The notes under the pieces were generated by a model. That model searched no databases and was not told where the DNA came from. It saw only the letters and a list, made by a program, of their open reading frames with translations. From assembly GCA_023150375.1 (NCBI GenBank), contig JAKLLA010000020.1:13389-77388 (forward strand): a stretch of 64,000 nucleotides of DNA, given 5' to 3'. Shown piece by piece: positions 8,062-29,468 of the stretch (positions within the stretch are counted from its first letter, which is position 1; each line of letters opens with the position of its first letter). Position numbers and translations under genes: made by a program. The stretch comes from Burkholderiaceae bacterium. GTDB taxonomy: Bacteria > Pseudomonadota > Gammaproteobacteria > Burkholderiales > Burkholderiaceae_C.

Positions 8062-8132
8062 GCCGCGGCGCAACGGCGCAACGCAGCGGCTGAACGGCCG
8101 CGTCGTCGGGCGGCGGAGCCGGCACTGCGCAT

Positions 8133-8159
8133 CCCGGCCCGGTCGCGGCGCGGGCCGGG
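8133..8159. terminator. GC-rich hairpin between convergent genes (possible bidirectional terminator)
   Basis: cccggcccg-N9-cgggccggg forms a 9-bp perfect stem between the A2M stop (8061) and the stop of the minus-strand gene (8172). There is no U-tract, so intrinsic-terminator function is unproven. Confidence 0.25.
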
Positions 8160-8171
8160 CGAGCGAGCGAG

Positions 8172-9248
8172 TCAGCGCACCGCCTCCGGCACCCCCCGCA
8201 GTTCCACCCGACCACGCGCGACGGTGGCCTGGCCGCCACGGCGCGGCGGCGCGAAGCGCCACTGGTTCAGCGCGGTCAGTGCCGCCCAGCCGAAGCCCGG
8301 GTCGCTGGCCGACACCAGCTCGGGCAGCAGCACCCGGCCCAGCGGGTCGACATGGAAGTCCAGCACCGCCCGCGCATCCGGCGGCGGCCCCGGCGCCGCG
8401 TGCTGCGGCGCCACCCGCCGCAGCACCCGCAGCGGCGCGTCCAGCTCGCCCGCACCCGCCCCGCCCGGCTCCCCGGCCGCCAGCCGGCCGATCAGCACCG
8501 CCGCCGTCGCCGGCACCCCGGCACGCGCCGGCCGCTCCGCGTCGAAGACCTGCTCGTACTCCAGCTGCGCCAGGTGCCCCGCCTGCCCGGCCGGCGTGAA
8601 GCGCCAGGCCTGCAGCATCGCCAGCGTCGCCGCGCCGAAGTCCGGGTGGCTGGCCGACAGCAGGGCCAGCTGCACCGGCTGCCCTGCGGCGCCGATCTGC
8701 ACCCGCACCCGCGCCCGCCCGCTCACCCCGGCCCGCAGCAGTGCGCTCGGGTAGACCGGCCACACCGCCTGCTGCACCGCCGGGGCGATCGCCAGCCGGG
8801 CATCGGCCTCCACCGGCAGCCCCGGGCCCAGCACCGCGCCCAGCCCGCCGTCCTGCATGCTGAAGCGCACCACCCGCGTCACCCGCATCGGCACCGGCTG
8901 GCCATCGCGCTGCGCCGGCCGGTAGGGCGTGGCCAGCAGCGCATCCAGCGTCGCCTCCACGAAGGCCGGATGCGCGCCGGCCAGCACCTCCACCTGCTCG
9001 GGCTGCCCCTGGCCATCCACCACGAAGGCCACCCGCACTTCGCCGCGCTGCCACGCCAGGTCCACATGGGCCGGCACCACCACCTGCACCGTCGCCAGCG
9101 GCACCGGCACCGACGCCCCCCCCGCCGCTTCCCCCGGCTGCGCCTGCGCCCACACCCACCCGGCCCCCGAGGGGGCCAGGCCGAGCAGCAGGACCAGCGG
9201 AACGACAGGCAGGCGCATGAGGGCAGCAAGGGCAACAGGCCACGACAT
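8172..9248 (-). CDS. periplasmic protein with three TonB C-terminal-like domains
   Basis: Signal-like N-terminus (MSWPVALAALMRLPVVPLVLLLGLAPSGAGWVWAQA). Three repeats of the TonB_C pattern follow (e.g. GEVRVAFVVDGQGQPEQVEVLAGAHPAFVEATLDALLATPYRPAQRDGQPV; GRARVRVQIGAAGQPVQLALLSASHPDFGAATLAMLQAWRFTPA; AVLDFHVDPLGRVLLPELVSASDPGFGWAALTALNQWRFAPP). The start could be 9284, 9248 or 9218. Confidence 0.6.
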   Translation of the reverse strand: MSWPVALAALMRLPVVPLVLLLGLAPSGAGWVWAQAQPGEAAGGASVPVPLATVQVVVPAHVDLAWQRGEVRVAFVVDGQGQPEQVEVLAGAHPAFVEATLDALLATPYRPAQRDGQPVPMRVTRVVRFSMQDGGLGAVLGPGLPVEADARLAIAPAVQQAVWPVYPSALLRAGVSGRARVRVQIGAAGQPVQLALLSASHPDFGAATLAMLQAWRFTPAGQAGHLAQLEYEQVFDAERPARAGVPATAAVLIGRLAAGEPGGAGAGELDAPLRVLRRVAPQHAAPGPPPDARAVLDFHVDPLGRVLLPELVSASDPGFGWAALTALNQWRFAPPRRGGQATVARGRVELRGVPEAVR

Positions 9249-9408
9249 CGGCCGCTGCAGCGCCCGATCCATGCGGAACCGCACGGGCGCCCCCGGCCAT
9301 TGTGTGCAATCGTGACATATCGCACGCCTTGCACGCGACCTGCCGGACCCACCCCGGCCCCTGCCGCCCCCGCAAGCCTGCCGCTGGCCGCCGGCCCGAT
9401 GGCTGCCT

Positions 9409-9543
9409 TAGACTGCGCTGCGTGACGACCCCCCGTGCCGCAACGCCTACCCCCGACCGTCGCGAGGCCGCTCCCCGACCGCCGCGAAAGTTGTCAAGCA
9501 CCCTCGCAAGTGCTTGTCGCCATTGGACTTTTCGGCGCGTGGA
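9409..9543 (+). promoter_or_regulatory. CRISPR leader of array 1
   Basis: About 135 nt directly 5' of the first repeat, largely identical to the sequence 5' of array 2. The shared block is cgcgaaagttgtcaagcaccctcgcaagtgcttgtcg.cattg.acttttcggcgcgtgga, and both copies start at tagactgc. It contains the inverted repeat CAAGCAC-N8-GTGCTTG (9495-9516). Confidence 0.6.
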
Positions 9544-12543
9544 GTCTGAATCGATGCCCTGTTTTCGAAGGGATTAAGACAAATGGCGGATATGCTGGTG
9601 TGGACGAGATAAGTGTCTGAATCGATGCCCTGTTTTCGAAGGGATTAAGACGAGTGTGGAGGAGACTCCGAAGGAGATGCGGGATCGTCTGAATCGATGC
9701 CCTGTTTTCGAAGGGATTAAGACTCCAGGATTCTTGTCCCACGAACTCCTCGATCAGTCTGAATCGATGCCCTGTTTTCGAAGGGATTAAGACTTCCCTC
9801 CCCTCCGCCTATAAATCCACCATTCCCGTCTGAATCGATGCCCTGTTTTCGAAGGGATTAAGACGCGGCTTGCATAAGCGCCGCTTCCACCAATGGGCGG
9901 TCTGAATCGATGCCCTGTTTTCGAAGGGATTAAGACCCGAGATGTTGCCGATGCCGTCGTCATACGAACGTCTGAATCGATGCCCTGTTTTCGAAGGGAT
10001 TAAGACGCCGCCGTGTAGTTCCCCTCGGAACCGCCGCCAGTCTGAATCGATGCCCTGTTTTCGAAGGGATTAAGACGCTTCGGCAAGTGTTGCCATGTTG
10101 ATCCCCATGGTCTGAATCGATGCCCTGTTTTCGAAGGGATTAAGACCATACGGGCCAGAAGGGGTTGCTACGGGTCGGGGCGTCTGAATCGATGCCCTGT
10201 TTTCGAAGGGATTAAGACCCGGCCGGCACGTCGGTGGTGCCGGCGGCCCAGCGGTCTGAATCGATGCCCTGTTTTCGAAGGGATTAAGACACACGGTCCC
10301 GGACGGGGTGTACGGCGTGTCCTGTCTGAATCGATGCCCTGTTTTCGAAGGGATTAAGACGTGGAACATGGTGCGGTTCTCCAGGGGGTTGGGTCTGAAT
10401 CGATGCCCTGTTTTCGAAGGGATTAAGACGCGGCGCTGAAATTGTGGTTGGCTCATGTGCGAAGTCTGAATCGATGCCCTGTTTTCGAAGGGATTAAGAC
10501 GATCGGCCCAGGAGGGCCGCAAGGTGGGTGATGGGTCTGAATCGATGCCCTGTTTTCGAAGGGATTAAGACTGTCCAGGTTGTCGATGGACAGGGTGATG
10601 GCGGGTCTGAATCGATGCCCTGTTTTCGAAGGGATTAAGACATGTTCAGGGTGTGGGGGGTCAGGTTCACAAAGCGGTCTGAATCGATGCCCTGTTTTCG
10701 AAGGGATTAAGACGCGCCGTTGGTGCGGTGGTAGGCCACGGTTTCTGTCTGAATCGATGCCCTGTTTTCGAAGGGATTAAGACATTGCGGGGCAGCGGTC
10801 AGTCGGGATCCCGCGCGGTCTGAATCGATGCCCTGTTTTCGAAGGGATTAAGACGAACTGTTCGCGCGCTCTGCGCTCGACGCTGGTCTGAATCGATGCC
10901 CTGTTTTCGAAGGGATTAAGACCATAGTGGCCGCCCTTGAGTTACGCGGCCTCGGTGGTCTGAATCGATGCCCTGTTTTCGAAGGGATTAAGACCCCAGC
11001 TCGCGCACCGGGCGCCCGGGGTGCGCTGTCTGAATCGATGCCCTGTTTTCGAAGGGATTAAGACTCGCGCAGCCAATCCTCCTCGAAGCCAAGCTGCGTC
11101 TGAATCGATGCCCTGTTTTCGAAGGGATTAAGACCACGCACTCAGGCGCGCCCAGCTCGCGCACCGAGTCTGAATCGATGCCCTGTTTTCGAAGGGATTA
11201 AGACCCCGCAGGGCCCGGAGCTCGAGCATCAGGGCCCGTCTGAATCGATGCCCTGTTTTCGAAGGGATTAAGACCCAGTGCGTCCGCGCTGGTGACAAGC
11301 CGCGCGGGTCTGAATCGATGCCCTGTTTTCGAAGGGATTAAGACCCCCGTGTCCGGGGCGAACACGTCCACCCCGACCCGTCTGAATCGATGCCCTGTTT
11401 TCGAAGGGATTAAGACCCAGCCGGTCAACGACGACAAGGTGGCCGCCGGTCTGAATCGATGCCCTGTTTTCGAAGGGATTAAGACTTGCGGCCTCTTCGA
11501 CGGTGCAGCCCAGGGCTTGTCTGAATCGATGCCCTGTTTTCGAAGGGATTAAGACGTCGGCGCTGCTTGGCGACCTCCTGCGACTTGGGGTCTGAATCGA
11601 TGCCCTGTTTTCGAAGGGATTAAGACGGCCGTGCGGCCGGCGTCTTCCGCTCCGGAGCGGGTCTGAATCGATGCCCTGTTTTCGAAGGGATTAAGACGGT
11701 GACGGACGCGCCGCACTTTGCACAGTCGAAGTCTGAATCGATGCCCTGTTTTCGAAGGGATTAAGACTCCTCGCCCTCCTTGCTCACCTTCACCAGCACG
11801 GTGTCTGAATCGATGCCCTGTTTTCGAAGGGATTAAGACCTCCTCAGATCCGGGCAACATCGCCCTGATCTGGGTCTGAATCGATGCCCTGTTTTCGAAG
11901 GGATTAAGACGGTCGTCCTGCGACGGGCGCAGGCCGAATGCCTGGTCTGAATCGATGCCCTGTTTTCGAAGGGATTAAGACGTGTCGTAGTCACTGTAGC
12001 CGTGGCGCACCAGCAGTCTGAATCGATGCCCTGTTTTCGAAGGGATTAAGACACACGGAATCTTCCCGGTCGCCCTTCAGGGCAGGTCTGAATCGATGCC
12101 CTGTTTTCGAAGGGATTAAGACAATAATGTCGGCCACGTCGTGCCACACGCTGCTGTCTGAATCGATGCCCTGTTTTCGAAGGGATTAAGACACGTAGCG
12201 CGCCGATTCGATCAAGGGGGCCGGTCTGAATCGATGCCCTGTTTTCGAAGGGATTAAGACCCGCTCGGAGCGAGCGGTGCCCGGGCACCTTGGTCTGAAT
12301 CGATGCCCTGTTTTCGAAGGGATTAAGACGCAGAGAACCAAGAGTACGCACGGAAATCCATGCGTCTGAATCGATGCCCTGTTTTCGAAGGGATTAAGAC
12401 CGCTCGGCCTGCGCCGGTGATCCACAGTCGAGAACGTCTGAATCGATGCCCTGTTTTCGAAGGGATTAAGACTCCAACAGCGTGCGGTCCTCGTCCTCGA
12501 TCTCGCGTCTGAATCGATGCCCCGTTTTCGAAGGGATCAAGAC
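9544..12543 (+). CRISPR. CRISPR array 1: 43 repeats and 42 spacers (hand count)
   Basis: The 37-nt repeat is GTCTGAATCGATGCCCTGTTTTCGAAGGGATTAAGAC with a period of 69-72 nt and spacers of 31-36 nt. The last unit (12507-12543) is degenerate (gtctgaatcgatgccCcgttttcgaagggatCaagac), which marks the leader-distal end. The 3' 8 nt ATTAAGAC resembles the AUUGAAAC/G crRNA 5' tag of Cas6-processed type III repeats. Confidence 0.97.
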
Positions 12544-12853
12544 TTTTCGATCATCACCGGCAGGAGTTCATCGCGAGCGTGAAACGCTGTTCGCCCGGCC
12601 GGACAGTCGGCGCTGGCGTTTCCAGTGTCGACGGCCGGCCGAGCCTGTCTCCCACGGGCCACGTCGGGTGTGCGGTTGCACCGGCAGGGTGCGTGGCAGC
12701 GTGCAGATGTCACGTCGCCATGCCGTCCGATGGGGGATGGGCGGCAGGCGGGCGGGCCCGATCCGCTAGGCTCGACGCGAAAAATCGGCACCCACAGCAA
12801 GAACAAGTCGGGGCTTGGCCGAGCCCCTGCACGCAGGCACCAGGAGGCTGCGG

Positions 12854-14149
12854 TTGACCCTTCCCCAACCTGATGACGACCCTGCGCCGCCCGGCACTGC
12901 GCCGGCGGCAGGCGGCGGCGATGCCGCGCGACGCCGGCCCGGCGATTGGCCGCGGCGGGTGCTGTTCACGGTCTGCGGGTTGAGCCCGCAGGTGGTCACC
13001 GAGACGATTTACGCCCTGGCGGTGGCGGCGGCGCCGGGTGAGCGCTTCGTGCCCACCGAGGTACATGTGCTCACCACCAGCGAGGGCGCACAGCGGGTGC
13101 GCCTGGCGCTGCTGTCCGAGCATCCGGGCGGCTTCCACCGGCTGCGGCGCGACTACGCGCTGCCGCCCATCACCTTCGGCGAGGCGCAGATCCACCTGGT
13201 CACCGGCGACGACGGCCAGCCGCTGGCCGACATCCGCTGCGAGGCCGACAACGCCCGCATGGCCGATGCGGTGACCGAGCTGTTGCGCGGCTTCACCGCC
13301 GACCCGCAGTGCGCGCTGCACGTCAGCATCGCCGGCGGGCGCAAGACCATGGGCTTCTACGCCGGCTATGCGCTGTCGCTGTTCGGCCGCGAGCAGGACC
13401 GGCTGTCGCACGTACTGGTGAGCGCGCCCTTCGAATCCTCCTGGGAGTTCTTCTACCCCACGCCCTACCCGCAGGTCATCGCCACCGCGGGCGGGCGCGA
13501 GCTGGCCGACGCCGCGCAGGCCGAGGTGCGGCTGGCGCAGATCCCCTTCGTGCGGCTGCGCCCGGTCCTGCCCGCAGCGATGCGCGACGCCGCGGCCGGT
13601 TTCGTCGACGTGGTGCAGGCCGCCGGTCGCCACCTGGCGCCGCCACGGCTGGTGCTGGAGGTGGCAAGCCGCTGCATCGAGGCCGACGGCCGGCGCATTC
13701 CCCTGCCGCCCTGGTCCTTCGCGCTGATGGCCGTGCTGGCGCAGCGCGCCCGGCGCGGCGCAGCCGCGCTGACCGCACCGACCAAGGACGTGCACGACGC
13801 TGATTGGGCCGCCGCCTTCCTGGCCGACCTGCGCGCCGTGGTGGGCCAGGCCGGCGTGCCGGACTCGGTGGAGCAGCAACTGGCCGGCAGCTGCACGGGC
13901 GACCGCTTCTCCCAGCACCGCTCGCGCCTGGTCCGCACTCTCACCGAGGCCCTGGGCCCCGGGCGTGTGCCGCGCTACTTCGACGACGGCGGGCGGCACC
14001 GGGGCAAGCGCTACTGCATCCCGCTGCCGCCCGAGTCCATCGAGATCCGGCGGGGCGGCGACAGGCCCGCAAGCTTGCGAAACGACCCCGCGCGAGCGCC
14101 CGATGCCACAGTGCCCTCCCGTCACCACTCCCCTGTTGCCGATGACTGA
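12854..14149 (+). CDS. CRISPR-associated CARF-domain protein, NE0113 (TIGR02584/PF09623)-like, paralogue 1
   Basis: Family motifs are present: RRVLFTVCGLSPQVVTETIYAL, EVHVLTTSEG, HVSIAGGRKTMGFYAGYALSLFGREQDRLSHVLVSAPFES. The track ORF begins at a TTG at 12815. I prefer the in-frame TTG at 12854, which lies 6 nt after AGGAGG; the start remains uncertain. The C-terminal third looks winged-helix-like (see findings). Confidence 0.75.
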   Translation: MTLPQPDDDPAPPGTAPAAGGGDAARRRPGDWPRRVLFTVCGLSPQVVTETIYALAVAAAPGERFVPTEVHVLTTSEGAQRVRLALLSEHPGGFHRLRRDYALPPITFGEAQIHLVTGDDGQPLADIRCEADNARMADAVTELLRGFTADPQCALHVSIAGGRKTMGFYAGYALSLFGREQDRLSHVLVSAPFESSWEFFYPTPYPQVIATAGGRELADAAQAEVRLAQIPFVRLRPVLPAAMRDAAAGFVDVVQAAGRHLAPPRLVLEVASRCIEADGRRIPLPPWSFALMAVLAQRARRGAAALTAPTKDVHDADWAAAFLADLRAVVGQAGVPDSVEQQLAGSCTGDRFSQHRSRLVRTLTEALGPGRVPRYFDDGGRHRGKRYCIPLPPESIEIRRGGDRPASLRNDPARAPDATVPSRHHSPVADD

Positions 14150-14723
14150 TGCCCTCCATCCCACCGTGGCCCACCTGCTGCAAAGCGCCACGCCCGTGCT
14201 GACCATTCACGGTCTGGCCGGGCGCCGCTGGGTGCGCAACGTGCCGGCATCCGACGCCCGCCACGGGCCCTGGCTGCAGGCGGGCTACGAGGTGCTCGAC
14301 GAGGCCACCTGGCAGCGTCCCGGCGCCTGCCTGTACCTGGTCACCGGCCGCGACGCCGGCCTGCGCTACGTGGGCATCTCGCGCAACGGGCTGAAGCACC
14401 GCTGGCGCCTCTCGCCCGCGCTGGACGCACAGACCCGCGCCGCGCTGCCAGACAGGCAGCTCTTCCACAGCCAGTGCTGGAAGCACATCGAGTCCGAATG
14501 CGCTGCCGACAGCCAGGCCCGCTTCACGGTGCACTGCCTGGGCGAGCGCACGCTGATCGAGGTCCTGCGCACGGTCGACGACCCCATCCGCCACCTGGCC
14601 GAACTCGACGAGGACGGCGAGACGGTCACCGCCGGCGTGGAGCGCTGGATCTGCAACCGCGCCAGCGCGAGCCTGGCGCGCTGGAATGTGGCGATGACGG
14701 CGCGGCGCGCCGCCTCGCGCTGA
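14142..14723 (+). CDS. hypothetical protein with GIY-YIG-nuclease-like motifs
   Basis: 193 aa from the internal ATG of track ORF 13965..14723. This ATG overlaps the upstream stop (ATGACTGA). Motifs CLYLVTGRDAGLRYVGISRNGLKHRW and GVERWICNRASASLARWN match the GIY...Y(I/V)G...R...E...N order. GC3-rich coding signal. The stop lies 16 nt before the cmr1 GTG. Confidence 0.5.
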   Translation: MTDALHPTVAHLLQSATPVLTIHGLAGRRWVRNVPASDARHGPWLQAGYEVLDEATWQRPGACLYLVTGRDAGLRYVGISRNGLKHRWRLSPALDAQTRAALPDRQLFHSQCWKHIESECAADSQARFTVHCLGERTLIEVLRTVDDPIRHLAELDEDGETVTAGVERWICNRASASLARWNVAMTARRAASR

Positions 14724-14739
14724 GAACAGGAGGATTGCC

Positions 14740-15816
14740 GTGATTGAACTCGAGTACCGACTGCAGTTCCTGACACCCGCCTTCCTCGGCAATGCCGAGC
14801 AGACGGCCCAGTGGCGCACGCCGCCGATCAAGGCGCTGCTGCGGCAGTGGTGGCGGGTGGCGTTTGCGGCCGATCAGCCCGGCGGCGTGGATGTGGCCGC
14901 GATGCGGCAGGCGGAGGGGCGGCTGTTCGGTCATGCCTGGCTGGAAAACGATCGCGACGCCCGTGGACAGAAGGTGGCAGCCCGGCGCAGCGCCATCCGG
15001 CTCAGGCTGAGCGACTGGAGCCTGGGGGACATGCCCGCGTCGCGCTGGGAGTCCTTGTCCACGGTTCGCCACCCGGAGGTGGCACAGCCGGTCCCGGCGG
15101 ATCTCTACCTGGGCTATGGGCCTGTGACGCTGCCGCGCGGTCAGCGTGTGCCCACCTTGAAGGCCGGTGCGGCGATTCAGGCCGGCAAGCGCGCGGAGCT
15201 GCGTCTGGCCGTCGTCGACCACGAGGCTGAGCGCCTGCAGCGCGCCCTGTCCCTGATGAACCTGTACGGCACGCTGGGCGGGCGCAGCCGCAATGGCTGG
15301 GGCTCGTTCAGTCTCACGCCGATGGAGGGGACGCCAGCCTTGTCCGCCACGCTGGACCACCGCGTGACCCTGCCTTGGCGCGATGCCTTGACCAGCGACT
15401 GGGCGCAGGCCATCGGCACCAGCGACCAACGCCCGCTGATCTGGCAGACCGGGCCCTGTGACGACTGGAAGAAGGCCATGGTCCAACTCGCCAGGACGAA
15501 GATCGAGCTGCGAACGCAGTTCCGATTCCCGCAGGACCGACCGGATGGCCAGATCCATGAGCGCCATTGGCTGAGTTACCCGGTCACCCGGCATGACGTC
15601 GCGGCGTGGAAGCGCGACAACCTGCGCCTGCCCAACTCCCTGCGCTTCAAGGTCCGAGCGGATGCCGACGGCAAGCTGCGCGGCGTGATCTTCCACATGC
15701 CCTGCCAGCCGCCCCCCGCCTTCCGCCCTGATCGCAGGGCCCTCGAGCAGGTCTGGGCGAAGGTGCATGCCTACCTGGACCAGCCGACGTCGAACCTGAA
15801 GCGCATTGCCGCCTGA
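14740..15816 (+). CDS. cmr1: type III-B RAMP protein Cmr1
   Basis: GTG start 7 nt after AGGAGG. LQFLTPAFLGNAE...WRTPPIKALLRQWWRV and the G-rich loop YGTLGGRSRNGWGSF are Cmr1 hallmarks. It is the first gene of the cmr block. Confidence 0.85.
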   Translation: MIELEYRLQFLTPAFLGNAEQTAQWRTPPIKALLRQWWRVAFAADQPGGVDVAAMRQAEGRLFGHAWLENDRDARGQKVAARRSAIRLRLSDWSLGDMPASRWESLSTVRHPEVAQPVPADLYLGYGPVTLPRGQRVPTLKAGAAIQAGKRAELRLAVVDHEAERLQRALSLMNLYGTLGGRSRNGWGSFSLTPMEGTPALSATLDHRVTLPWRDALTSDWAQAIGTSDQRPLIWQTGPCDDWKKAMVQLARTKIELRTQFRFPQDRPDGQIHERHWLSYPVTRHDVAAWKRDNLRLPNSLRFKVRADADGKLRGVIFHMPCQPPPAFRPDRRALEQVWAKVHAYLDQPTSNLKRIAA

Positions 15817-15824
15817 GCCCCGCC

Positions 15825-18800
15825 ATGACGATTCCACACGACACCCTCTGGCAGACCAAGCTGCATGCCCGTCTGCACGATCCGGCCGAGAAGGCGCTGG
15901 TGCTGCTGCGCGACCCCGAGGGGCACGAGGGCGGCAGCTCGCGCGCCTTGCACCGACTGATGGGCTTCCAGCGCATCGATGCGGCCAACATCGACCCCGA
16001 CAACGACGAGGTGCTGCACCGCGCCCTGTTCAAGCAGGGTATTCCGGCCGCGATGTACCAGACGGTCAAGCGCGCCGACTGGTGGGCCGCCGCGGCCGAC
16101 CGCCCGCAGTGGCCGATGCAGGAGATCACCGTCACCACGAAGAAGGGGGAGCAGAAGACGCTGAAGGTCGCGCCCGGCAGCCAGGTGCGCTGGGCCAAGG
16201 AGCCGGTGCTGATCCACCCGCTCACCGGGGCCGAGTACCACCTCGGCGGCCTGCGCGACACCGAGCTGGACGACCTGAAGTCACGCTGCTTCGAGCACAC
16301 CGCCGCGCTGATCCAGCGTCGCCCCGACGGCGAGGTCGACTGGACCCGCACCCTGTTCGCCCTCTGGCGCTTCGGCCCCGAGCTGAGCGAGGCGCAGGAC
16401 AACGGCACGCTGGGCGCCCTGTGGCCGCTGCTGCCGGCCGACACCCGCGTGCCCGACCACAGCATCTGGGATCACCTGGACCTGACCTCGGCCTTTGCCG
16501 GTGCGTTTGCCGCCGACCCGCAGGGCGAGGTGGCCCTGCTGACGCTGGCCATCGGGCCGGTGCAGAACTTCATCGCCGCGGCGCGCAGCACCTCCGACCT
16601 GTGGGCGGGTTCGCACCTGCTGGCCCGGCTGGCCTGGGAGGCCATGAAGCCGGTGTGCGAGGCGCTCGGCCCGGATGCCATCCTCTTCCCGCGCCTGCGC
16701 GGCGTGCCGCAGGTGGACGCCTGGCTGCGCGACGACCTGGGGCTGCCCGCCCGGCTGTTCGACGGCGCCCCCTGGACCGGCAAGGCCACCGACGCCAACC
16801 CGCTGTTTGCCGCCGCGCTGCCCAACCGCTTCGTGGCGCTGGTGCCGGCCTCCCGGGCGCGTGAGCTGGCCTTCCAGGTGGAGCGCGCGGTGCGCGGCTG
16901 GCTGCAGGCCCAGGGCCAGACCGTGGTGGACCGCCTGCTCCAGGAAGCGGGCCTGGACGCCGGGCGTGACAGCCATGCGCACCGCCAGATGCGCCAGCAG
17001 CTCGAAGGGTTCCCCGAGGTGCACTGGGCCGCGGTGCCCTTCTCGCTGATCCAGCCGCGCAACGCAGAGAAGCAGACCGACCTGGACACCCGCGCCCTCA
17101 GCGCCGCGATGGCGCCGTTCTTCGGCGTGCCGCCGGGCCAGCCCTGCGGCTTCCTGACCTCCAAGGCCTGGGAAGTGCTGCAGAAGAGCGTGCGCTGGGA
17201 GGGCAACACCGTCTTCTTCGACCCCAACCCCGGTGCGCTCTACCCGGCGGTGCACGATCTGGCCGAGCGCGCCCTGGCCGCCGCCAAGGCGGTGCGGCCA
17301 TTCCAGCAGCAGCCGCAGGCGGGCTGGCGCTGCTCGCTGACCGGCGAGACGGAGTGGCTCACCACCGACCCGGCCCATCTGCAGCTGCCGCCTGGGCAGC
17401 GCAAGGACACCCTGTGGACGATCATCGCCCGCAAGCGCCCGGCCTGGGCCAAGAAGGGTGAGCACCTGGGCGCGCTGCCGGCCCTCAAACGCCTGTGGCC
17501 GCAGTTGTTTGCCGAGGAGGTCGGCAAGCGGGTGGGGGACGCTGAATCCGGCCGCAGCGCGCGGCGCTTCGTGGTGTCCACCCACACCATGTCGCTGGCC
17601 CACCAGCTCGACCAGTGGCTGGAACGTGGTGCGATCACGCCGCCGGACCTGGACCGCGCCCTGGACGATCACGGTGGCGAGACCGTGGCGCTGCCACGCA
17701 GGCTCATGCGCAAGCACGCGCGACAGGTCGGTGCGCTCGACGATGCGCGCCGCCTGCCGGCGCTGCTGGATGCGGCCGACCAACTGGACGACGAGTCCGC
17801 CGCGCGCGATCTGCAGGGCCTGGTGCGGCGCACGCTCGGGCGCGATGCTGGCCGGCTGGAGACCTACTACTCGCTGCTGCTGATGGACGGCGACCGCATG
17901 GGCGCCTGGCTGGCCGGCGGCGACCAGTACGCCATTCCCTATCGCGAGAGCTTCCACCCGCAGACCCGTGCCGGCTTCGAGCAGCATGCCGAGCGCGAGC
18001 CGACGCTGCGCGCCTACGGCCGGCAGCCGCGCGCCGTGTCGCCCAACCGCCACCTGTCGATCTCCGCGGCGCTGAACGACTTCTCGCTCACCGTCGTGCC
18101 GCATGTGGTGGAAGAGGAGTTCCTGGGCCGGCTGATCTACGCCGGTGGCGACGATGTGCTGGCCATGCTGCCGGTGGCCGACCTGCTGCCGGCGATGCAG
18201 CGCCTGCGCCTGGCTTACGCCGGGCACGACCCGGCACATGAGCTGGGCGAACGTGACCGCCAGGGGCTGACCCTGCACCGCGGCTTCGCCATGCTGCGCC
18301 AGGGCCCCCGCATGCGGCTGATGCGCATGATGGGCCACAAGGCCACGGCCAGCGCCGGCGGCGTCATCGCCCACCACCAGGCGCCGCTGGGCGCGGTGCT
18401 GCGCGAGCTGCGTGCTGCCGAGAGCCGCGCCAAGAACGCCGGTGGGCGCAATGCCTTCAGCCTCACCGTGGTCAAGCGCTCGGGCGGCGCGCTCACCGTC
18501 ACCGCCAAGTGGGGTGAGCCGGTGGCCCTGCTGGACGCGCTGCGCCGCTGGCTGGGGCAGGACGGCGTCTCGCGCCGTGCGGTCTACAACAGCCTGGACT
18601 GGATCAAGGACCTGCCGCAGGACGACCCGGCCATGCTGGCGTCGCTGCTGAGCTACCAGTTGCAGCGCCAGGCCCAAGGCGACGAGGCCAGGGCCCAGGC
18701 GCCTGAGCTGGCCCGGCGCCTGGCGGCGCTGGCCTTCGACGACGCCCTGCGGCCTGCGCCAGGCTCCAAGGACAAGCGCCTGGACTGGCTGGCCCACTTC

Positions 18801-18851
18801 ATGGGCGTCGCGGAGTTCCTGGCCCGCGAAACCCGCAGCGCCGACCGATGA
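15825..18851 (+). CDS. cas10: Cas10/Cmr2, type III-B large subunit
   Basis: 1008 aa. N-terminal HD-type motif (KLHARLHDPAEKALVLL), the Palm/cyclase motif LIYAGGDDVLAMLP, and its position between cmr1 and cmr3. Confidence 0.92.
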   Translation: MTIPHDTLWQTKLHARLHDPAEKALVLLRDPEGHEGGSSRALHRLMGFQRIDAANIDPDNDEVLHRALFKQGIPAAMYQTVKRADWWAAAADRPQWPMQEITVTTKKGEQKTLKVAPGSQVRWAKEPVLIHPLTGAEYHLGGLRDTELDDLKSRCFEHTAALIQRRPDGEVDWTRTLFALWRFGPELSEAQDNGTLGALWPLLPADTRVPDHSIWDHLDLTSAFAGAFAADPQGEVALLTLAIGPVQNFIAAARSTSDLWAGSHLLARLAWEAMKPVCEALGPDAILFPRLRGVPQVDAWLRDDLGLPARLFDGAPWTGKATDANPLFAAALPNRFVALVPASRARELAFQVERAVRGWLQAQGQTVVDRLLQEAGLDAGRDSHAHRQMRQQLEGFPEVHWAAVPFSLIQPRNAEKQTDLDTRALSAAMAPFFGVPPGQPCGFLTSKAWEVLQKSVRWEGNTVFFDPNPGALYPAVHDLAERALAAAKAVRPFQQQPQAGWRCSLTGETEWLTTDPAHLQLPPGQRKDTLWTIIARKRPAWAKKGEHLGALPALKRLWPQLFAEEVGKRVGDAESGRSARRFVVSTHTMSLAHQLDQWLERGAITPPDLDRALDDHGGETVALPRRLMRKHARQVGALDDARRLPALLDAADQLDDESAARDLQGLVRRTLGRDAGRLETYYSLLLMDGDRMGAWLAGGDQYAIPYRESFHPQTRAGFEQHAEREPTLRAYGRQPRAVSPNRHLSISAALNDFSLTVVPHVVEEEFLGRLIYAGGDDVLAMLPVADLLPAMQRLRLAYAGHDPAHELGERDRQGLTLHRGFAMLRQGPRMRLMRMMGHKATASAGGVIAHHQAPLGAVLRELRAAESRAKNAGGRNAFSLTVVKRSGGALTVTAKWGEPVALLDALRRWLGQDGVSRRAVYNSLDWIKDLPQDDPAMLASLLSYQLQRQAQGDEARAQAPELARRLAALAFDDALRPAPGSKDKRLDWLAHFMGVAEFLARETRSADR

Positions 18852-20008
18852 GCATGAGCACGAGCATGAACCCGAACCCGAACGTCGTCCATCACCGTTT
18901 CATCGAGCCGCTGGACGTGCTGTTCCTGCGCGGCAACAAGCTCTTCGGCGACGCCGGCAGCTATGGCGAAAGCCTGGTGCCGCCCTGGCCTTCGGTGGCC
19001 GCGGGTGCCCTGCGCAGCGCCATGCTGGCCCGCGACGGCGTCGATCTGGCGGCCTTTGCGCAAGGGCGTGTGACGCACCCGCTGCTGGGGACGCCTGCAG
19101 CGCCGGGTGACTTTGCCGTCGCCGGCTTCGCGCTGGCGCGGCGGCTGGCCGATGGCCGCGTGGAGTCGCTGCACCCGCTGCCCGCCGACCTGGTTGCCCT
19201 GGCCGACGAGAAGGGCGCCGCGCAGCGCTTGCAGCGGCTCGTGCCCACGACGCCGGCGGCCGGGCTGGCCAGTTCGGCGGCGCTGCCCCTGTGGCCCGTG
19301 CTGCCGCAGGGCGAGCGTGGCAAGCCCCTGGGTGGCGTCTGGCTCACGCAGGCGGGCTGGGCCGAGCATCTGGCCGGGCGCACGCCGTCCGTGAACCAGC
19401 TGCTGAAGACCTCCGACCTGTGGGGCCTGGACGAGCGCGTGGGCGTGGGCCTGGATGCCGAGCGGCGCCGTGCCGCCGACGGCCAGCTGTTCACCGTGCA
19501 GGCCGTGGCCCTGCGCGACGGCATCGGCTTTCTGGCCGGCGTGACGGGCTGCGAGCCGCCGTCCGACGGCGTGCTGCGCCTGGGTGGCGACGGCCGCGGC
19601 GCTGCCGTGCGAGTCGCGCGCCATCTGCCGGTGGCCGTGGACCTGGCTGCCATTTGCAAGGCCCGCCGCGCGCGCGTGCTGCTCACCACCCCGGGCCTGT
19701 TTGCAGAGGGCTGGCGCCTGCCCGGCACCGATGCCGATCTGCGCCTGCGCTGGCCGGGCCTGAGCGCCCGGCTGGTCTGCGCCGCGGTGGCACGAGCCGA
19801 CGTCGTCAGTGGCTGGGACCTGGCCCAGCGCGCCCCCAAACCGGCCGAGCGCGTGGCGCCGGCCGGCAGCGTCTACTGGCTCGACGACCTGGAGGCCACG
19901 CCCGAGACGCTCGGCAAGCTTGCCGAGCAGGGCCTCTGGATGCACGACTCACACAATGCCCAGCGCCGTGCCGAGGGCTTCAACCGCTACACCTTTGCCG
20001 CCTGGTAA
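18848..20008 (+). CDS. cmr3: Cmr3
   Basis: The start overlaps the cas10 stop (ATGA). HHRFIEPLDVLFLRGNKLFGDAGSYGESLVPPWPSVAAGALRSAM matches the Cmr3 N-terminal signature. Confidence 0.85.
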   Translation: MSMSTSMNPNPNVVHHRFIEPLDVLFLRGNKLFGDAGSYGESLVPPWPSVAAGALRSAMLARDGVDLAAFAQGRVTHPLLGTPAAPGDFAVAGFALARRLADGRVESLHPLPADLVALADEKGAAQRLQRLVPTTPAAGLASSAALPLWPVLPQGERGKPLGGVWLTQAGWAEHLAGRTPSVNQLLKTSDLWGLDERVGVGLDAERRRAADGQLFTVQAVALRDGIGFLAGVTGCEPPSDGVLRLGGDGRGAAVRVARHLPVAVDLAAICKARRARVLLTTPGLFAEGWRLPGTDADLRLRWPGLSARLVCAAVARADVVSGWDLAQRAPKPAERVAPAGSVYWLDDLEATPETLGKLAEQGLWMHDSHNAQRRAEGFNRYTFAAW

Positions 20009-20031: not shown

Positions 20032-20943
<912 letters not shown>

Positions 20944-20948
20944 AGACC

Positions 20949-22606: not shown

Positions 22607-22999
22607 TCACCGCCCCGCCATGACCCCCCCCCAAGCCTCCCGCGGCCCCACGACCCTCATGCCCCCACGCGGATCCCAGCCCAGCACCCGCTGGTCGCCG
22701 GTCACGAACAGCTCGGCACCGGCCCGTTCGGCGGCGGCCACCAGCCGTGCGTCGGCATCGTCGGCGGGGTCGTCCACGTCAGGCACACCCGTGGCACGGG
22801 CCCACAGCAGATCGAAGCGCAGCACCGCCTGCGCATGGCGGGCGAACTTGCGCTGCAGCACCTCGTGGGTCTCGCGGCGCACCAGGTTGCTGGTCAGGAC
22901 CTCATGCCCACCTTCGTGCAGCGCGACCAGCAGTTCGGCGCACAGGCCCGGGAAGACGATGGCCGACAGCCAGACGTTGGTGTCGAGGAAGACCTTCAT
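22607..22999 (-). CDS. PIN-domain toxin (VapC-like)
   Basis: MKVFLDTNVWLSAI...ADARLVAAAERAGAELFVTGDQRVL is the PIN acidic-residue pattern. Start taken from the internal ATG of track ORF 22607..23176. Its stop lies 5 nt from the cmr6 stop (convergent). Confidence 0.8.
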   Translation of the reverse strand: MKVFLDTNVWLSAIVFPGLCAELLVALHEGGHEVLTSNLVRRETHEVLQRKFARHAQAVLRFDLLWARATGVPDVDDPADDADARLVAAAERAGAELFVTGDQRVLGWDPRGGMRVVGPREAWGGVMAGR

Positions 23000-23022
23000 G
23001 GCCGGCTGTGGCGGCACAGGCT

Positions 23023-23241
23023 TCAGGATACGTCGCGCAGGATGTCGTCTTCCGTCAGCCAGCCGCCGGCGCGGGCCTGCGGGCCCAGTTCGTCGTGCAG
23101 CTGGCGCAGCGTCTCGCGCAGCGCCTGGGCGCGCAGGGCGTCGCGCACCAGCTCGCTGCGGGTGCGGCCGGTCCACTGCACCAGTCGGTCCAGCTCGGCG
23201 GCTTCTTCGTCGTTCAGGCGCACGGTCAGGACGGCGGACAT
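23023..23241 (-). CDS. ribbon-helix-helix (CopG-type) antitoxin
   Basis: MSAVLTVRLNDEEAAELDRLVQWTGRTRSELVRDALRA is an RHH fold signature. It lies directly upstream of the PIN gene. Start taken from the internal ATG of track ORF 23023..23406. Confidence 0.75.
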   Translation of the reverse strand: MSAVLTVRLNDEEAAELDRLVQWTGRTRSELVRDALRAQALRETLRQLHDELGPQARAGGWLTEDDILRDVS

Positions 23242-23260
23242 GGAAACTCCAGGAGGGTGT

Positions 23261-24430
23261 ATGACACTGTCAGACGACTTCGATTGTGGAGTGGTATCGA
23301 CCGAGCCGCAACCCACCGCGGCCGCGTCTCTTCGCGGTGATCTGCCGGTGGTGGCGCAGCCCCTGCCGACCACGCTCCCCCTCACCCGCCTGCGCCTGAC
23401 CGCCATCGCCCAGGCCGACCTGCCGCTGCCCGACTACGCCGGCTCGCTGCTGCGCGGCGCTTTCGGTGCCGCCCTGCGCCGCGGCGCCTGCATGACCGGT
23501 TTGACGCAGTGCCGCGACTGTGCGCTGTGGCGCAGCTGTCCCTACCCGGCGGTGTTCGAGACGCCGCCGGCGCCCACCCAGTTCGGCCAGCAGTTCAGCG
23601 CCGTGCCCAACCCCTACGTGATCGAGCCGCCGCCCATCGGCCTGCGCCGTGTGGCGGCCGGGCAGCCGCTGGTGTTCCACCTCGTGCTCTTCGGCGAGGC
23701 CACGCTGCGCCAGCTGCCGTTGATCGTGCACGCCTGGCAGCGCGCGCTGCGCCACGGGCTGGGGCGCGAACGCATCGGCAGCGAGCTGGTGGAGGTGGCG
23801 GCCGTCCTGCCCGCAGCGGCGGGCGGTGACGAGCGGATCCCGGTCTGGGATGCCGAGAGTGCCCGTGTCCAGTCGCAGTCGTTGGCGCAGACGGCGCTGC
23901 CGTGGCCGAACCAGGCGCCGGCCGGGCTCACCCAGCTGACCCTGCAGATCCACACCCCCCTGCGCCTGCAGCACGACGGCCACGCACTCGGGCCAGGCGA
24001 GTTGAGCCTGCGCACCCTGCTCGCCCAGTTGCTGCGCCGGCTGAATCTGGTGCTGGACCTGCACTGCGGCATCCGGCCCGCCCCCTTCGACGCGCCGGCC
24101 CTGCTGGCCGCCGCCGAAGCCGGTCTGCGCGACGACCGCAGCGGCCTGCAGTGGCAGGACTGGCGGCGCTACTCCGCCCGCCAGCGCCAGGAGATGACCC
24201 TGGGCGGCGTGCTCGGCCGCTGGACGCTCAGCGGCGACAGCGCCGTGCTGGCGCAGCTCTGGCCCTGGCTCTGGCTGGGCCAGTGGCTGCACCTGGGCAA
24301 GAACGCGACGATGGGGATGGGCGGCTATCGCCTGGCTTGGGGCGCCGACGGGCCGGTCCCCGATTTGCCTGCCTGCATGAAAGAATCCATCACCTCAACG
24401 GCGCAAGCGCGCAAGGAGCCGGCATGCTGA
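23261..24430 (+). CDS. cas6: Cas6-family pre-crRNA endoribonuclease (DUF2276/PF10040-like RAMP)
   Basis: The ATG at 23261 follows AGGAGGG. It has a Cys cluster (CMTGLTQCRDCALWRSCPYPAVFE), NPYVIEPP, and a C-terminal G-rich loop (HLGKNATMGMGGYRL). The longer track ORF 22835..24430 runs antisense through the TA pair. Confidence 0.8.
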   Translation: MTLSDDFDCGVVSTEPQPTAAASLRGDLPVVAQPLPTTLPLTRLRLTAIAQADLPLPDYAGSLLRGAFGAALRRGACMTGLTQCRDCALWRSCPYPAVFETPPAPTQFGQQFSAVPNPYVIEPPPIGLRRVAAGQPLVFHLVLFGEATLRQLPLIVHAWQRALRHGLGRERIGSELVEVAAVLPAAAGGDERIPVWDAESARVQSQSLAQTALPWPNQAPAGLTQLTLQIHTPLRLQHDGHALGPGELSLRTLLAQLLRRLNLVLDLHCGIRPAPFDAPALLAAAEAGLRDDRSGLQWQDWRRYSARQRQEMTLGGVLGRWTLSGDSAVLAQLWPWLWLGQWLHLGKNATMGMGGYRLAWGADGPVPDLPACMKESITSTAQARKEPAC

Positions 24431-25120: not shown

Positions 25121-25440
25121 TGCCGATGAGCCGCACCTTCTTCCTCTCCCGCCACCCCGGCGCCATCGAATGGGCACGCCGCCAGGGACTGGGGGTCGAC
25201 CAGTGGCTGGCGCACCTGGACGTGGCGCAGGTGCAGCCGGGCGACACCGTGATCGGCACCCTGCCCATCCACCTGGCCGCGCAGGTCTGCGCGCGCGGTG
25301 GGCGTTACCTGCACCTGAGCCTGGATGTGCCGCCGCAGTGGCGCGGGCGGGAGCTGACGGCCGATGAGCTGGAGGCGGCGGGGGCGCGGCTGGAGGGATT
25401 CACAGTGACTTCGATGCATGAGGAAGAGGGCCATGCCTGA
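25120..25440 (+). CDS. csx16: Csx16 (VVA1548-family) CRISPR-associated protein
   Basis: MSRTFFLSRHPGAIEWARRQGLGVD...VQPGDTVIGTLPIHLAAQVCARGGRYLHLSLDVPPQWRGRELTADEL matches my memory of the Cas_VVA1548 consensus. The start is either 25120 (overlapping the HEPN TGA) or 25126. Confidence 0.65.
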   Translation: MPMSRTFFLSRHPGAIEWARRQGLGVDQWLAHLDVAQVQPGDTVIGTLPIHLAAQVCARGGRYLHLSLDVPPQWRGRELTADELEAAGARLEGFTVTSMHEEEGHA

Positions 25441-26584
25441 CAAAGAGAATCACCAGCGGGTGGTGCATGTGTGCATCGCCACCGGCCAGAACGCGGCGAA
25501 CCTGATCCCACTGGAACAGTACGACGCGCGGGAGGTCTGGATCCTGCAGACACCGACGATGCGCGCCAACGCCGCCAATCTGGCGCAGGCGCTCAAGAAG
25601 GAGGGACGCCAGATCGAGCGCATCGACTTCGATGACAGCAGCCCTCGGCAGCTGGAGACCAGCGCCGAAGCCGTTGCACACCGCCTCGATGGCTGCCACG
25701 TGGTGCTGCACGCAACCGGAGGGACCAAGCTGATGGTCCTGGCCCTGCGCGACGGTTTGCGGCTGGTCGAGGCGGGCAGTGGCACGCTGGAGATCCTCTA
25801 TGCGGAAACCAGCAAGCAGCAGATCGACTGGCTCGGGCATGCGCCGCGGACCGATGCCATGGCCGACGTGCTGGATCTGCGGCTGGCGCTGCTGGTTCAG
25901 GGCTATCGCATCGAAGGGGACAGCCGGCACGCAGCGGCGCAGCAGCGTGCGGCCACGCGTGCCGGCGTGACGCGCGAGATGGGCGAAAACGCCGGGCGTT
26001 ACCGGGGCTCCCTCAGTGCGCTGGCGGGTCGTGCCCGGCGGGCCGCCGACGGCGGGCAGGAACGCGATCTGGTTCAGCACTTCGAGTACGCGCCGGGCGG
26101 GGCACTGGGGCAGCTCCTCGCCAAGGCCGCTCATCACGGGCTGGTCGACTGGGATGGCGGTGAGACGGTCCGTTTCACCAGTCGGGAGGTGGCCGAGTAC
26201 TTTGCGGGCGGCTGGATCGAGGAATTCGTCCTGCTCAAGCTCACCGGCGGCCTCGTGAAGCCGGGGCGCTTCAGCAGCAACCTGCGTGTGCTGTCGGTGG
26301 ACAAGAACGTCCCGAACGAAATCGACGCGATCGTCATCCACCGCAACCGGGTGCTGCTCATCGAATGCAAATCCGGAAAGCAGAGCCGCGCCCAGGATGC
26401 GCTGTACAAGCTGGCTCAGCTGCGCCAGCAGCTCGGCGGCAGCGTCGCCTCGGCCCTGTACCTGAGCGCCCAGCGCGTGGATGAGCAGGTGCTGCAGCGC
26501 GCGGCCGAATACCGCATCGATGTACTGTGCGCCGATGAGGTCGCGAAGTTCGTTCCCTGGCTGCGGGACTGGTTGGAGCGCTGA
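25433..26584 (+). CDS. Card1/Can2-type cOA-activated effector (CARF + PD-(D/E)xK nuclease)
   Basis: N-terminal CARF with VVLHATGGTKLM. C-terminal nuclease motifs GGWIEEFV and NEIDAIVIHRNRVLLIECKSGK (D...ExK). The ATG overlaps the csx16 stop. Confidence 0.8.
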   Translation: MPDKENHQRVVHVCIATGQNAANLIPLEQYDAREVWILQTPTMRANAANLAQALKKEGRQIERIDFDDSSPRQLETSAEAVAHRLDGCHVVLHATGGTKLMVLALRDGLRLVEAGSGTLEILYAETSKQQIDWLGHAPRTDAMADVLDLRLALLVQGYRIEGDSRHAAAQQRAATRAGVTREMGENAGRYRGSLSALAGRARRAADGGQERDLVQHFEYAPGGALGQLLAKAAHHGLVDWDGGETVRFTSREVAEYFAGGWIEEFVLLKLTGGLVKPGRFSSNLRVLSVDKNVPNEIDAIVIHRNRVLLIECKSGKQSRAQDALYKLAQLRQQLGGSVASALYLSAQRVDEQVLQRAAEYRIDVLCADEVAKFVPWLRDWLER

Positions 26585-26950: not shown

Positions 26951-27019
26951 TTGCAGGGGGCTCCGATCCCACCGCGTCAACGTTGACGCGGCACGGCGCC
27001 GAAGCGGTCGGCAAACAGA

Positions 27020-28277: not shown

Positions 28278-29468
28278 ATGAACCGAGATCCTTTCCTCTG
28301 CGAGCGCCGCGTTCTGGCCTGCGTCTGCGGCATGTCGCCTGCCGTCGTGACCGAGACCCTGTACGCGCTGGTGACGCAGCAGGACTTCGTTCCGGATGAA
28401 GTTCATGTGATTACCACCACGCAGGGGCGCGCTCGGGTGCTGCGGGACCTGCTGGGGGTGGGGGAGGCCGGCGGGACGGCGGCTTTCGAACATTTCGTCC
28501 AGGCCTACCTGCCCGGGCGTCGGCCGCGCTTCGGCACCGACTGCGTGCATGTGCTCGGCCAAGGCAACGGTGACGGTGACCGTGAGGGGCTGTCCGACAT
28601 CCGCAGCGACGATGACAACCGCAGGGCTGCCGACACTGTCTATCGCGTTCTGCGGGCACTGAAGGACCTTCCGGGAACCCGGCTGCACGCGTCGGTGGCC
28701 GGCGGCCGCAAGAGTATGAGCTTCTACATGGGGCACGCGTTCTCGCTGGTCGCCGAGCCCGGTGACCAGCTCAGCCATGTGCTGGTCGACCCCCCTTTCG
28801 AAGACCGGGTGCCGGACTTCTACTTTCCGACGCCTGAGTCGCAGTTGCTGCCGCTCTGGCAGCACGGCCAGGTGGTCGGCACGGTCGACGCGCAACTGGC
28901 GCAGGTGCGGCTGGCCGAGCTGTCCGTCCTGAAGTTGGGCGGGCTGCTGGCGAACCTGCCGGCCAAGGCGCGGGAGCGCTTCGATCTGGCTGTGTGCATT
29001 GCGCAGGCCACGATGCTGCCGCCTCAGGTTCGGCTGGTCTGGAGCGTCCAGGCCGAGCGGGGCCATGTCGACATGCTGGGTGAGCGCATCGACCTGTCGC
29101 GTCAGCAGTTCGCGGTGCTGCTGCTGCATGCATTGGTCCGATCTCACGAGACGGAGCTGCCCGGCGGTGCAGGGCTGATCGTCGAAGACTTGCCCGCCGG
29201 GCTTCTCGAGGAGATCGGCGGTCAGTCCGTCAGGGCGAGCAGTTTCAAGTCCGTGCGCTCGAAGATTCGCGCGCTGGCCCAGGCGCAGGTCGGGCCGGCA
29301 GCCGACTGGCTGCTGATCGAAGCGGTGGGCGAACGCCGGCGCGAAGAAGAACGACCACAGGCGCTGCGATTGCCGGCCCATTGCCTGACGCTGGTGGGCG
29401 TTCCCAACACGTGGTGGCAATCGTTGCGGCGAGTCCTGCTCACCCAGCGCAGCAGCGTGGCGGATTGA
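28278..29468 (+). CDS. CRISPR-associated CARF-domain protein, NE0113-like, paralogue 2
   Basis: It shares family motifs with 12854..14149: RRVLACVCGMSPAVVTETLYAL, EVHVITTTQG, HASVAGGRKSMSFYMGHAFSLVAEPGDQLSHVLVDPPFED. Confidence 0.75.
   Translation: MNRDPFLCERRVLACVCGMSPAVVTETLYALVTQQDFVPDEVHVITTTQGRARVLRDLLGVGEAGGTAAFEHFVQAYLPGRRPRFGTDCVHVLGQGNGDGDREGLSDIRSDDDNRRAADTVYRVLRALKDLPGTRLHASVAGGRKSMSFYMGHAFSLVAEPGDQLSHVLVDPPFEDRVPDFYFPTPESQLLPLWQHGQVVGTVDAQLAQVRLAELSVLKLGGLLANLPAKARERFDLAVCIAQATMLPPQVRLVWSVQAERGHVDMLGERIDLSRQQFAVLLLHALVRSHETELPGGAGLIVEDLPAGLLEEIGGQSVRASSFKSVRSKIRALAQAQVGPAADWLLIEAVGERRREEERPQALRLPAHCLTLVGVPNTWWQSLRRVLLTQRSSVAD

Follow-up and report, generated by a model that had tools for sequence, protein, structure and literature searches.

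A 193-residue protein of a divergent GIY-YIG-like family as a candidate optional accessory of a type III-B CRISPR-Cas locus

The X193 gene and its junctions

The 64,000-nucleotide (nt) stretch of DNA analyzed here, referred to as the window, comes from a Burkholderiaceae bacterium (GenBank assembly GCA_023150375.1, contig JAKLLA010000020.1, positions 13,389 to 77,388) and holds a type III-B CRISPR-Cas locus with an array of 37-nt repeats on either side. At the head of its cmr operon, a gene for a 193-amino-acid (aa) protein, here called X193, lies between a CARF gene (CARF1) and cmr1. X193 is a candidate for a divergent GIY-YIG-like family member that serves as an optional type III-B accessory. 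The features of the junction are as follows (window coordinates).

12854..14149, plus strand: NE0113/CARF5-type CARF gene (CARF1), 431 aa
14142-14149, plus strand: overlap ATGACTGA, with the X193 ATG at 14142 within the last codons of CARF1 and the CARF1 TGA at 14147-14149
14142..14723, plus strand: 193-aa gene (X193)
14724-14739, plus strand: 16-nt spacer gaacaggaggattgcc, in which AGGAGG is the ribosome-binding site of the cmr1 GTG at 14740
14740..15816, plus strand: cmr1 (RAMP)

The CARF1 frame starts with the TTG at 12854, 7 nt 3′ of an AGGAGG. An initial annotation, made by reading the letters and their translations, had called its product an NE0113-type CARF protein, and profile searches bore this out with matches to PF09623 in Pfam (E = 2.3e-44, 152 bits against a cutoff of 23), TIGR02584 in NCBIfam (9e-67, 225.1 bits against a cutoff of 80.65) and CARF5--CARF in PADLOC (4e-115, residues 34-399). 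By these matches CARF1 is a full member of NE0113/CARF5, with the CARF domain at about residues 36-248. The C-terminal ~180 aa searched alone matched no Pfam family at E ≤ 10, no DNA-binding domain was confirmed there, and a sequence search of the PDB with CARF1 found nothing. A role in transcription regulation has been predicted for NE0113 proteins (PMC4012209), and members of the CARF5 clade have been described with signatures of cyclic oligoadenylate (cOA) binding or cleavage (PMC12669630); these published views are predictions only. In the literature searched, no paper characterized the function of effector-less NE0113/CARF5 members, and no NE0113 protein was reported with a dedicated nuclease partner. 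The NCBI product name for TIGR02584/NE0113 proteins is 'CRISPR-associated ring nuclease Csm6', yet these proteins have no HEPN domain, and the name may mislead automated annotation of such loci.

The X193 open reading frame (ORF) has 193 codons and ends with the TGA at 14721-14723. Its start within CARF1 and the 16-nt AGGAGG spacer to cmr1 were found exactly as first described, and independent gene calls on other contigs gave the same 431-aa and 193-aa products. X193 is identical in sequence to a 'hypothetical protein' of a Burkholderiaceae metagenome-assembled genome, and 425 homologues were found at E ≤ 1e-3, nearly all of them 185-200 aa long; when 1.84 billion cluster representatives were searched exhaustively with a profile, 138 clusters of the family were found. 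Compared with orthologous loci at 89% and 74% protein identity, the ratio of non-synonymous to synonymous substitution rates (dN/dS) was 0.18 and 0.39 for X193, alongside 0.24 and 0.30 for cmr1 and 0.20 and 0.32 for the CARF gene at the same two loci. X193 is a real gene under purifying selection. Antisense ORFs on the minus strand (12710-14206 and 13941-14831) were considered as alternatives and rejected as high-GC artifacts, because protein-level conservation, dN/dS and the independent gene calls all favor the plus strand.

No terminator-like site was found on the plus strand from 12854 to 15000, and the 16-nt spacer is homologous to the CARF-cmr1 junction in loci that have no X193. The initial annotation had proposed that CARF1, X193 and the cmr genes form a single expression unit, and the sequence agrees with this; diverged loci likewise have tight junctions. 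It had also placed the 193-aa product in no known Cas family, and scans of Pfam, NCBIfam, PADLOC and PHROGs gave no significant match for X193, with distant members of the family likewise unmatched in PHROGs, PADLOC and NCBIfam. Neither a CARF nor a SAVED domain was detected in X193 with Pfam, NCBIfam or PADLOC. The AlphaFold model of X193 shows one compact domain arrangement, with a predicted local distance difference test score (pLDDT) of 93.4 and a predicted template modeling (TM) score (pTM) of 0.89.

Relationship of X193 to GIY-YIG nucleases

X193 consists of a conserved N-terminal part, residues 1-58 (W30, R32, R40, G42-P43-W44 and W57), followed by a divergent GIY-YIG-like domain at residues 59-190 (Y65, Y76-V-G78, R87-W-R89, H109, E167 and W181-N182), with the motif strings CLYLVTGRDAGLRYVGISRNGLKHRW at 63-88 and GVERWICNRASASLARWN at 165-182. 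The GIY-YIG motifs that had been read by eye are thus present in order, and the residue numbers first given to them were partly wrong: in place of E157 and N172 as the catalytic pair, the glutamate of VERW is E167 and the asparagine conserved in the family is N182 (RWN). Conservation follows the corrected set, with Y65, G78, R87, H109, E167 and N182 remaining at least 90% conserved among homologues as distant as 25% identity. Y76 and N172 are not so conserved, and in a distant clade L, A, M or H stands in place of Y76. In the AlphaFold model, Y65 lies on the predicted strand 63-69 and Y76-V-G78 on strand 74-80, and the spacing of 15 between E167 and N182 equals that between E75 and N90 of I-TevI.

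At the level of the family, 43 diverse members were scanned, of which 16 matched PF01541 at E ≤ 1, the best of them at 8.5e-5; every other family was matched by one of the 43 at most. The distant clade in which the second tyrosine is missing gave no PF01541 match. When a family profile (alignment A2) was searched against the PDB, the top match was the GIY-YIG domain of UvrC (1yd6), weak at E = 0.69 and lying over the Y..YVG..R segment; an earlier family alignment, A1, had found nothing relevant among PDB sequences. One family member is named 'GIY-YIG domain-containing' in UniProt, and another, P0209, has an RNase_T/DnaQ exonuclease (9.5e-31) fused N-terminally to the GIY-YIG-like domain.

The alignment of 43 family sequences was then compared by hhalign with an I-TevI-type alignment of 27 distinct domains taken from IMG/VR (40 loci). 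I-TevI residues 1-97, the reference sequence for the latter, proved 100% identical to a T4-like contig. The comparison scored 30.0 over 100 columns (P = 4.8e-4, probability 32%) and paired Y65 with Y6, Y76-V-G with Y17-V-G, R87-W with R27-W, H109 with H40, E167 with E75 and W181-N182 with Y89-N90 (X193 and I-TevI, respectively), as well as the strand FTV of X193 with FEC of I-TevI. In a column-shuffle null, none of 99 scores was as high as the real one (mean 11.5, standard deviation 2.4, maximum 17.7), and a reversed-alignment control scored 18.1. Profile-profile alignment thus backs the GIY-YIG motifs of the initial annotation, as do the sub-threshold PF01541 matches of family members and the UvrC match.

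The order of secondary-structure elements in the X193 model matches the beta-beta-(alpha)-alpha-beta-alpha order of GIY-YIG domains. The canonical helix alpha-1 is reduced to a short turn and a beta-hairpin, and the model has a ~25-aa insertion, with two helices inserted ahead of the helix that bears the glutamate. A Foldseek search of BFVD with the full model returned GIY-YIG endonucleases at sub-threshold E values only (0.3-1), below an unnamed top match, M1HWP8, at 8.7e-4. We consider it probable that X193 is of GIY-YIG ancestry.

Distribution of the X193 family

With each GTDB species represented by one genome, a scan gave 47 loci of the X193 family, all in beta- or gamma-proteobacteria, and a metagenome set gave 80 loci. 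The gene was found on 2 of 72,556 plasmids and, in an IMG/VR scan with alignment A1, on four contigs, two of which are clearly phages. On the phage contigs L136 (5708-7088) and L137 (6079-8558; L numbers denote loci elsewhere than in the window) it stands beside the large terminase gene, and on L136 it lies directly 3′ of an HNH endonuclease gene; a terminase/HNH neighborhood is a typical site of free-standing endonuclease genes. No family match was found in 50,697 GenBank phage genomes.

Outside CRISPR loci, almost no neighbor is conserved. In Methylobacillus the family gene lies in a small integrase island between secG and nuo, a second locus is an integrative element that also carries MobC, toxin-antitoxin pairs and two integrases, a third has a NERD-UvrD helicase neighbor, and in a fourth the gene is inserted by itself between ilvD and a gene, probably argA, for an amino-acid kinase/acetyltransferase. 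The only recurrent non-CRISPR neighbors, c1 (17 loci) and c2 (20 loci), lie just upstream of the family gene, for example at L008 (8932-10543) and L044 (8726-10546). The c1 product has a length of about 240-330 aa and bears an HTH_3 or RHH domain at its C-terminus, and that of c2 is about 90 aa and belongs to no family. A 511-aa protein, P0164, has an apparent c1-like N-terminus fused to the GIY-YIG-like domain (pairwise BLAST 3.7e-4). These arrangements hint at a c1-c2-X module outside CRISPR loci; neither c1 nor c2 is present in the window.

Association with cas10-containing loci is not a property of the family as a whole and is limited to one clade and two scattered loci. Every X193 homologue at 65% identity or more adjoins an NE0113 CARF gene and cmr1, and in a neighbor-joining tree the CARF-adjacent homologues form one clade, with the two scattered loci, L084 and L096, falling elsewhere. 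Two gene orders occur in the clade. In the first, CARF1, the X193 gene and cmr1-6 follow one another on one strand, as in the window, L055/56 (X193 homologue at 89%), L057 (74%) and L188 (68%). In the second, the cmr operon is divergent from an X193 homologue that is followed by a CARF2-like gene (L001, L058 and L002, X193 homologues at 65-66%), and the CARF protein there is 53% identical to the product of the second CARF gene of the window (CARF2, 28278-29468) and only 35-40% identical to CARF1. At L084 (6481-8564), cas1-cas2 is followed by an X193 homologue with a divergent cmr operon, and at L096 (1-1130) the 3′ end of a Card1-like gene is followed by an X193 homologue; these two could be independent captures or chance placements in defense islands.

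In the first gene order, the CARF and X193 frames overlap by 8 nt in the window and by 1 nt (TGATG) in the 89% lineage; the 74% lineage has a gap of 44 nt instead, and the 68% lineage one of 62 nt. The 16-nt AGGAGG spacer to cmr1 is common to the three lineages whose junction sequences were read (the window, 89% and 74%), and in L188 the gap between X193 and cmr1 is 35 nt. At L188 the X193 homologue is 68% identical to that of the window, compared with 57% and 42% for the flanking CARF and cmr1 products. A more distant CARF gene, that of L187 (CARF 66%), has no X193 homologue beside it and precedes a type III-A csm operon.

The surrounding locus and candidate roles of X193

The remaining features of the locus are listed below.

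9544..12472: CRISPR array 1, ~43 copies of the 37-nt repeat GTCTGAATCGATGCCCTGTTTTCGAAGGGATTAAGAC, 5′ of the cmr operon
15825..18851, plus strand: cas10/cmr2, cyclase motif GGDD at residues 774-777
18848-20008, plus strand: cmr3
20047-20943, plus strand: cmr4
20940-21329, plus strand: cmr5
about 21331-22602, plus strand: cmr6
22835..24430, plus strand: cas6, 531 aa, Cas6 domain from about residue 180
24470-25120: HEPN-domain protein, 216 aa (PF05168, 3e-18), between cas6 and the Card1-like gene
25418..26584, plus strand: Card1/Can2-like CARF4-PD-D/ExK nuclease, a conventional fused cOA effector of the same locus
26947-28185: 412-aa gene, 5′ neighbor of CARF2
28278..29468, plus strand: second NE0113/CARF5 gene (CARF2), with no adjacent X193 homologue in the window
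29711-30184: 157-aa gene, 3′ neighbor of CARF2
30658-31674: full Cas1 gene (7e-67)
31809-32696: second Cas1-like gene, 295 aa, its match (8e-8) confined to the N-terminal part of the Cas1 profile
33234-37275: second CRISPR array, ~58 copies of a 37-nt repeat

The repeats of the two arrays differ by a single base (GTCTGAATCG... and GTCTGAACCG...). On a Logan contig, L050, cas1b-cas2 is joined directly to the CARF gene, probably because the assembly collapsed over the arrays. Within the cas locus, at 26784-26892 between the Card1-like gene and the 412-aa gene, the repeat core (ATGCCCTGTTTTCCAAGGGATTGAGAC...) occurs in two degenerate copies with a spacing of 72 nt, which resemble a decayed mini-array or leader remnant. 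The cas6 product is unusually long, its N-terminal 180 aa lying outside the Cas6 model matches, and the 216-aa protein has a HEPN domain only, with no CARF domain and no match in the PADLOC scan. The 412-aa and 157-aa genes matched no Pfam or PADLOC family even at E ≤ 10 and may be further uncharacterized accessory genes. Just 5′ of array 1, in a stretch of 71-78% GC, an 855-aa ORF on the minus strand (6934-9501) gave no Pfam match.

The reading that we prefer, with a probability of about 0.42, is that X193 is a divergent GIY-YIG-type nuclease derived from mobile genetic elements and captured as an optional, co-translated type III-B accessory. Its C-terminal two-thirds would most likely be a one-metal endonuclease of a divergent GIY-YIG type, with Y65, R87, H109, E167 and N182 as the proposed catalytic set. 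The family would be mobile cargo, each member standing alone in a genomic island, an integrative element, a temperate phage or, in a few cases, a plasmid, and one clade of it would have been captured into type III-B loci beside an effector-less NE0113/CARF5 gene. In the window, X193 would have been inserted as a bare ORF between CARF1 and cmr1 and, from this position, would therefore be co-transcribed and co-translated with the CARF protein and the Cmr complex. Its most likely role would be that of an optional ancillary nuclease that adds nucleic-acid cleavage once Cas10, with its GGDD motif, makes cOA, and its link to the CARF5 protein might be direct contact or mere co-expression. A role in immunity is favored by the purifying selection on X193, the adjacency to CARF genes in two gene orders with two CARF paralogues, the translational coupling and the GGDD of Cas10. 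We only infer nuclease activity for X193, its substrate and any dependence on CARF5 or cOA.

Several results weigh against this reading. The only Pfam line for X193 by itself is PF01541, over residues 63-89, with E = 0.3 and 11.9 bits where the cutoff is 22.6. Foldseek found no GIY-YIG entry in the PDB with either the full model (best E 0.17, CRP, TM 0.24) or a trimmed domain model of pLDDT 94.4 (best E 0.64), which may be because helix alpha-1 is reduced and two helices are inserted. A cas or CARF gene lies within 10 kb in only 2 of the 47 genome loci, such genes are near only 6 of the 80 metagenome loci, and CARF1 has over 5600 relatives at E ≤ 1e-20, against the 425 homologues of X193. Of the outcomes that the initial annotation had named in advance as refuting it, two were found in part, a missing structural match and homologues in non-CRISPR contexts: no GIY-YIG structure was recovered and most homologues lie outside CRISPR contexts with no CARF gene. 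The locus also already encodes a fused Card1-like CARF4-PD-D/ExK nuclease and a HEPN protein. Finally, the closest CARF1 homologues that could be placed on contigs have no X193: at L182 (CARF1 homologue 81%) the CARF stop overlaps the cmr1 GTG directly (GTGA), and at L184 and L186 (72% and 71%) a gap of ~30 nt is followed by cmr1. Since these homologues run straight into cmr1, X193 is dispensable for the operon, and the CARF protein has no need of it. In the junction alignment, ...caggaggattgccGTGATTGAACTC of the window is homologous to ...caaggaggaaagacGTGATCGAACTC of L182; X193 is therefore an indel of a bare ORF, placed ~20 nt 5′ of the ribosome-binding site of cmr1, and this indel changes only the last ten or so CARF residues.

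This patchiness is also what would be expected if X193 were selfish, a free-standing homing-endonuclease-like passenger riding the CARF-cmr1 expression signals and contributing nothing to immunity. Near-identical operons carry the gene (window, L056, L057, L188) or do not (L182, L184, L186), the empty allele has homologous flanks around the site of the ORF-only insertion, and the solitary insertions elsewhere (between ilvD and argA, in an integrase island and at terminase/HNH phage sites) fit the same behavior. GIY-YIG is a classic homing-endonuclease fold, and the higher identity of X193 than of its flanks at L188 is as horizontal spread would predict. Against this, a single homing site does not suffice for CARF adjacency in two gene orders and positions, 3′ of CARF1 and 5′ of a CARF2-like gene; X193 has been kept under purifying selection while its flanks diverged strongly; the Pfam scan showed no recognizable DNA-binding module of homing endonucleases; and the GenBank phage genomes gave no match. 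We regard the selfish explanation as the main rival, although a somewhat unlikely one.

It is unlikely, too, that X193 has a new fold in which the Y..YVG..RW and E..WN strings are convergent and the function is unrelated to nucleic-acid cleavage. Such a fold would account for two high-confidence models that have no match in the PDB, for the turn and beta-hairpin in place of helix alpha-1 along with the ~25-aa insertion, and for the distant clade that has neither the second tyrosine nor a PF01541 match. Against it stand an hhalign score that exceeds the shuffle null by ~7.7 standard deviations, in an alignment that matches all six catalytic positions and the E-to-N spacing, PF01541 as the sole recurrent family match, and a secondary-structure order that fits GIY-YIG.

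In the stronger form suggested by the initial annotation, the two genes would make up an obligate two-component effector, a cOA-gated DNase in which a cOA-bound CARF5 dimer allosterically activates X193 as a separate GIY-YIG nuclease. The overlap suited to translational coupling in two lineages, the clade that keeps its CARF adjacency with two CARF5 paralogues, the lack of a recognizable effector domain in the CARF5 protein, the cOA-binding or cleavage signatures of CARF5 (PMC12669630) and the cyclase motif of Cas10 all point in this direction. However, the two partners mostly occur apart, with close CARF1 homologues doing without X193 and most members of the X193 family doing without any CARF gene; the overlap has given way to a gap of 44 nt in the 74% lineage and of 62 nt in the 68% lineage; and NE0113 proteins have been predicted to regulate transcription instead (PMC4012209). 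An obligate pair is thus improbable: the split module was not established, as the nearest CARF-cmr operons have no X193, and what stands of it is a CARF-adjacent clade that persists through two gene orders.

Least probable is an enzyme that cuts cOA, ring-nuclease-like in the locus and anti-CRISPR-like on mobile elements: the distribution of the family resembles that of Crn2/AcrIII-1 and Crn4, which are small, stand-alone proteins of type III loci and mobile elements, and the cyclic tetra-adenylate (cA4)-type Card1-like effector of the locus would need resetting, but we know of no precedent for a GIY-YIG fold cleaving cOA, the DnaQ-exonuclease fusion points to polynucleotide substrates, no GenBank phage match was found, and a type III context was not seen in most host genomes.

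The cOA-controlled effectors of type III systems are a growing list, and in almost all of them one polypeptide combines the enzyme with its CARF or SAVED sensor. If X193 and CARF1 did form a split effector, its sensor would work with a nuclease recruited from mobile elements, and X193 would be the first GIY-YIG enzyme in cOA signaling; a full-text literature search found no paper connecting GIY-YIG with CARF or type III accessory genes. A CARF gene persistently paired with a stand-alone candidate nuclease offers a concrete and cheap test of whether effector-less CARF proteins act via separate partners. A selfish X193 would instead exemplify a mobile endonuclease that parasitizes a CRISPR operon. 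Either way, a ~190-aa family of at least 425 members with no Pfam or NCBIfam model merits its own family definition.

Among known systems, the free-standing GIY-YIG homing endonucleases of the I-TevI and Seg types share with X193 the Y-x10-YVG-x8-RW ... H ... E-x14-(Y/W)N pattern in register, the patchy ORF-only insertion between conserved genes and the phage and mobile-element contexts of the family. Unlike them, X193 has its catalytic domain at the C-terminus, behind a novel conserved N-terminal part of 58 aa, has no detected NUMOD, zinc-finger or HTH module, and has helix alpha-1 replaced and two helices inserted. A DnaQ exonuclease fused to a GIY-YIG domain is a Cho/UvrC-like architecture that P0209 shares, and this fusion partner points to DNA or RNA end processing, not CRISPR; X193 itself is unfused. 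The ring nucleases Crn2/AcrIII-1 and Crn4 are like the X193 family in being small and stand-alone in type III loci and on mobile elements, and their folds are unrelated to it. CARF1 is comparable to the effector-less CARF proteins, which include NE0113/CARF5 and the CARF-HTH protein Csa3, with no DNA-binding domain confirmed in its C-terminus. Can1, Can2, Card1 and Cdn1, the cOA-activated type III effectors that join CARF4 to a nuclease, are each one polypeptide with a PD-D/ExK fold, whereas X193 lacks both CARF and SAVED domains and belongs to a family that mostly occurs apart from CRISPR; like them, X193 is a candidate nuclease with a genetic tie to a CARF sensor of a type III locus.

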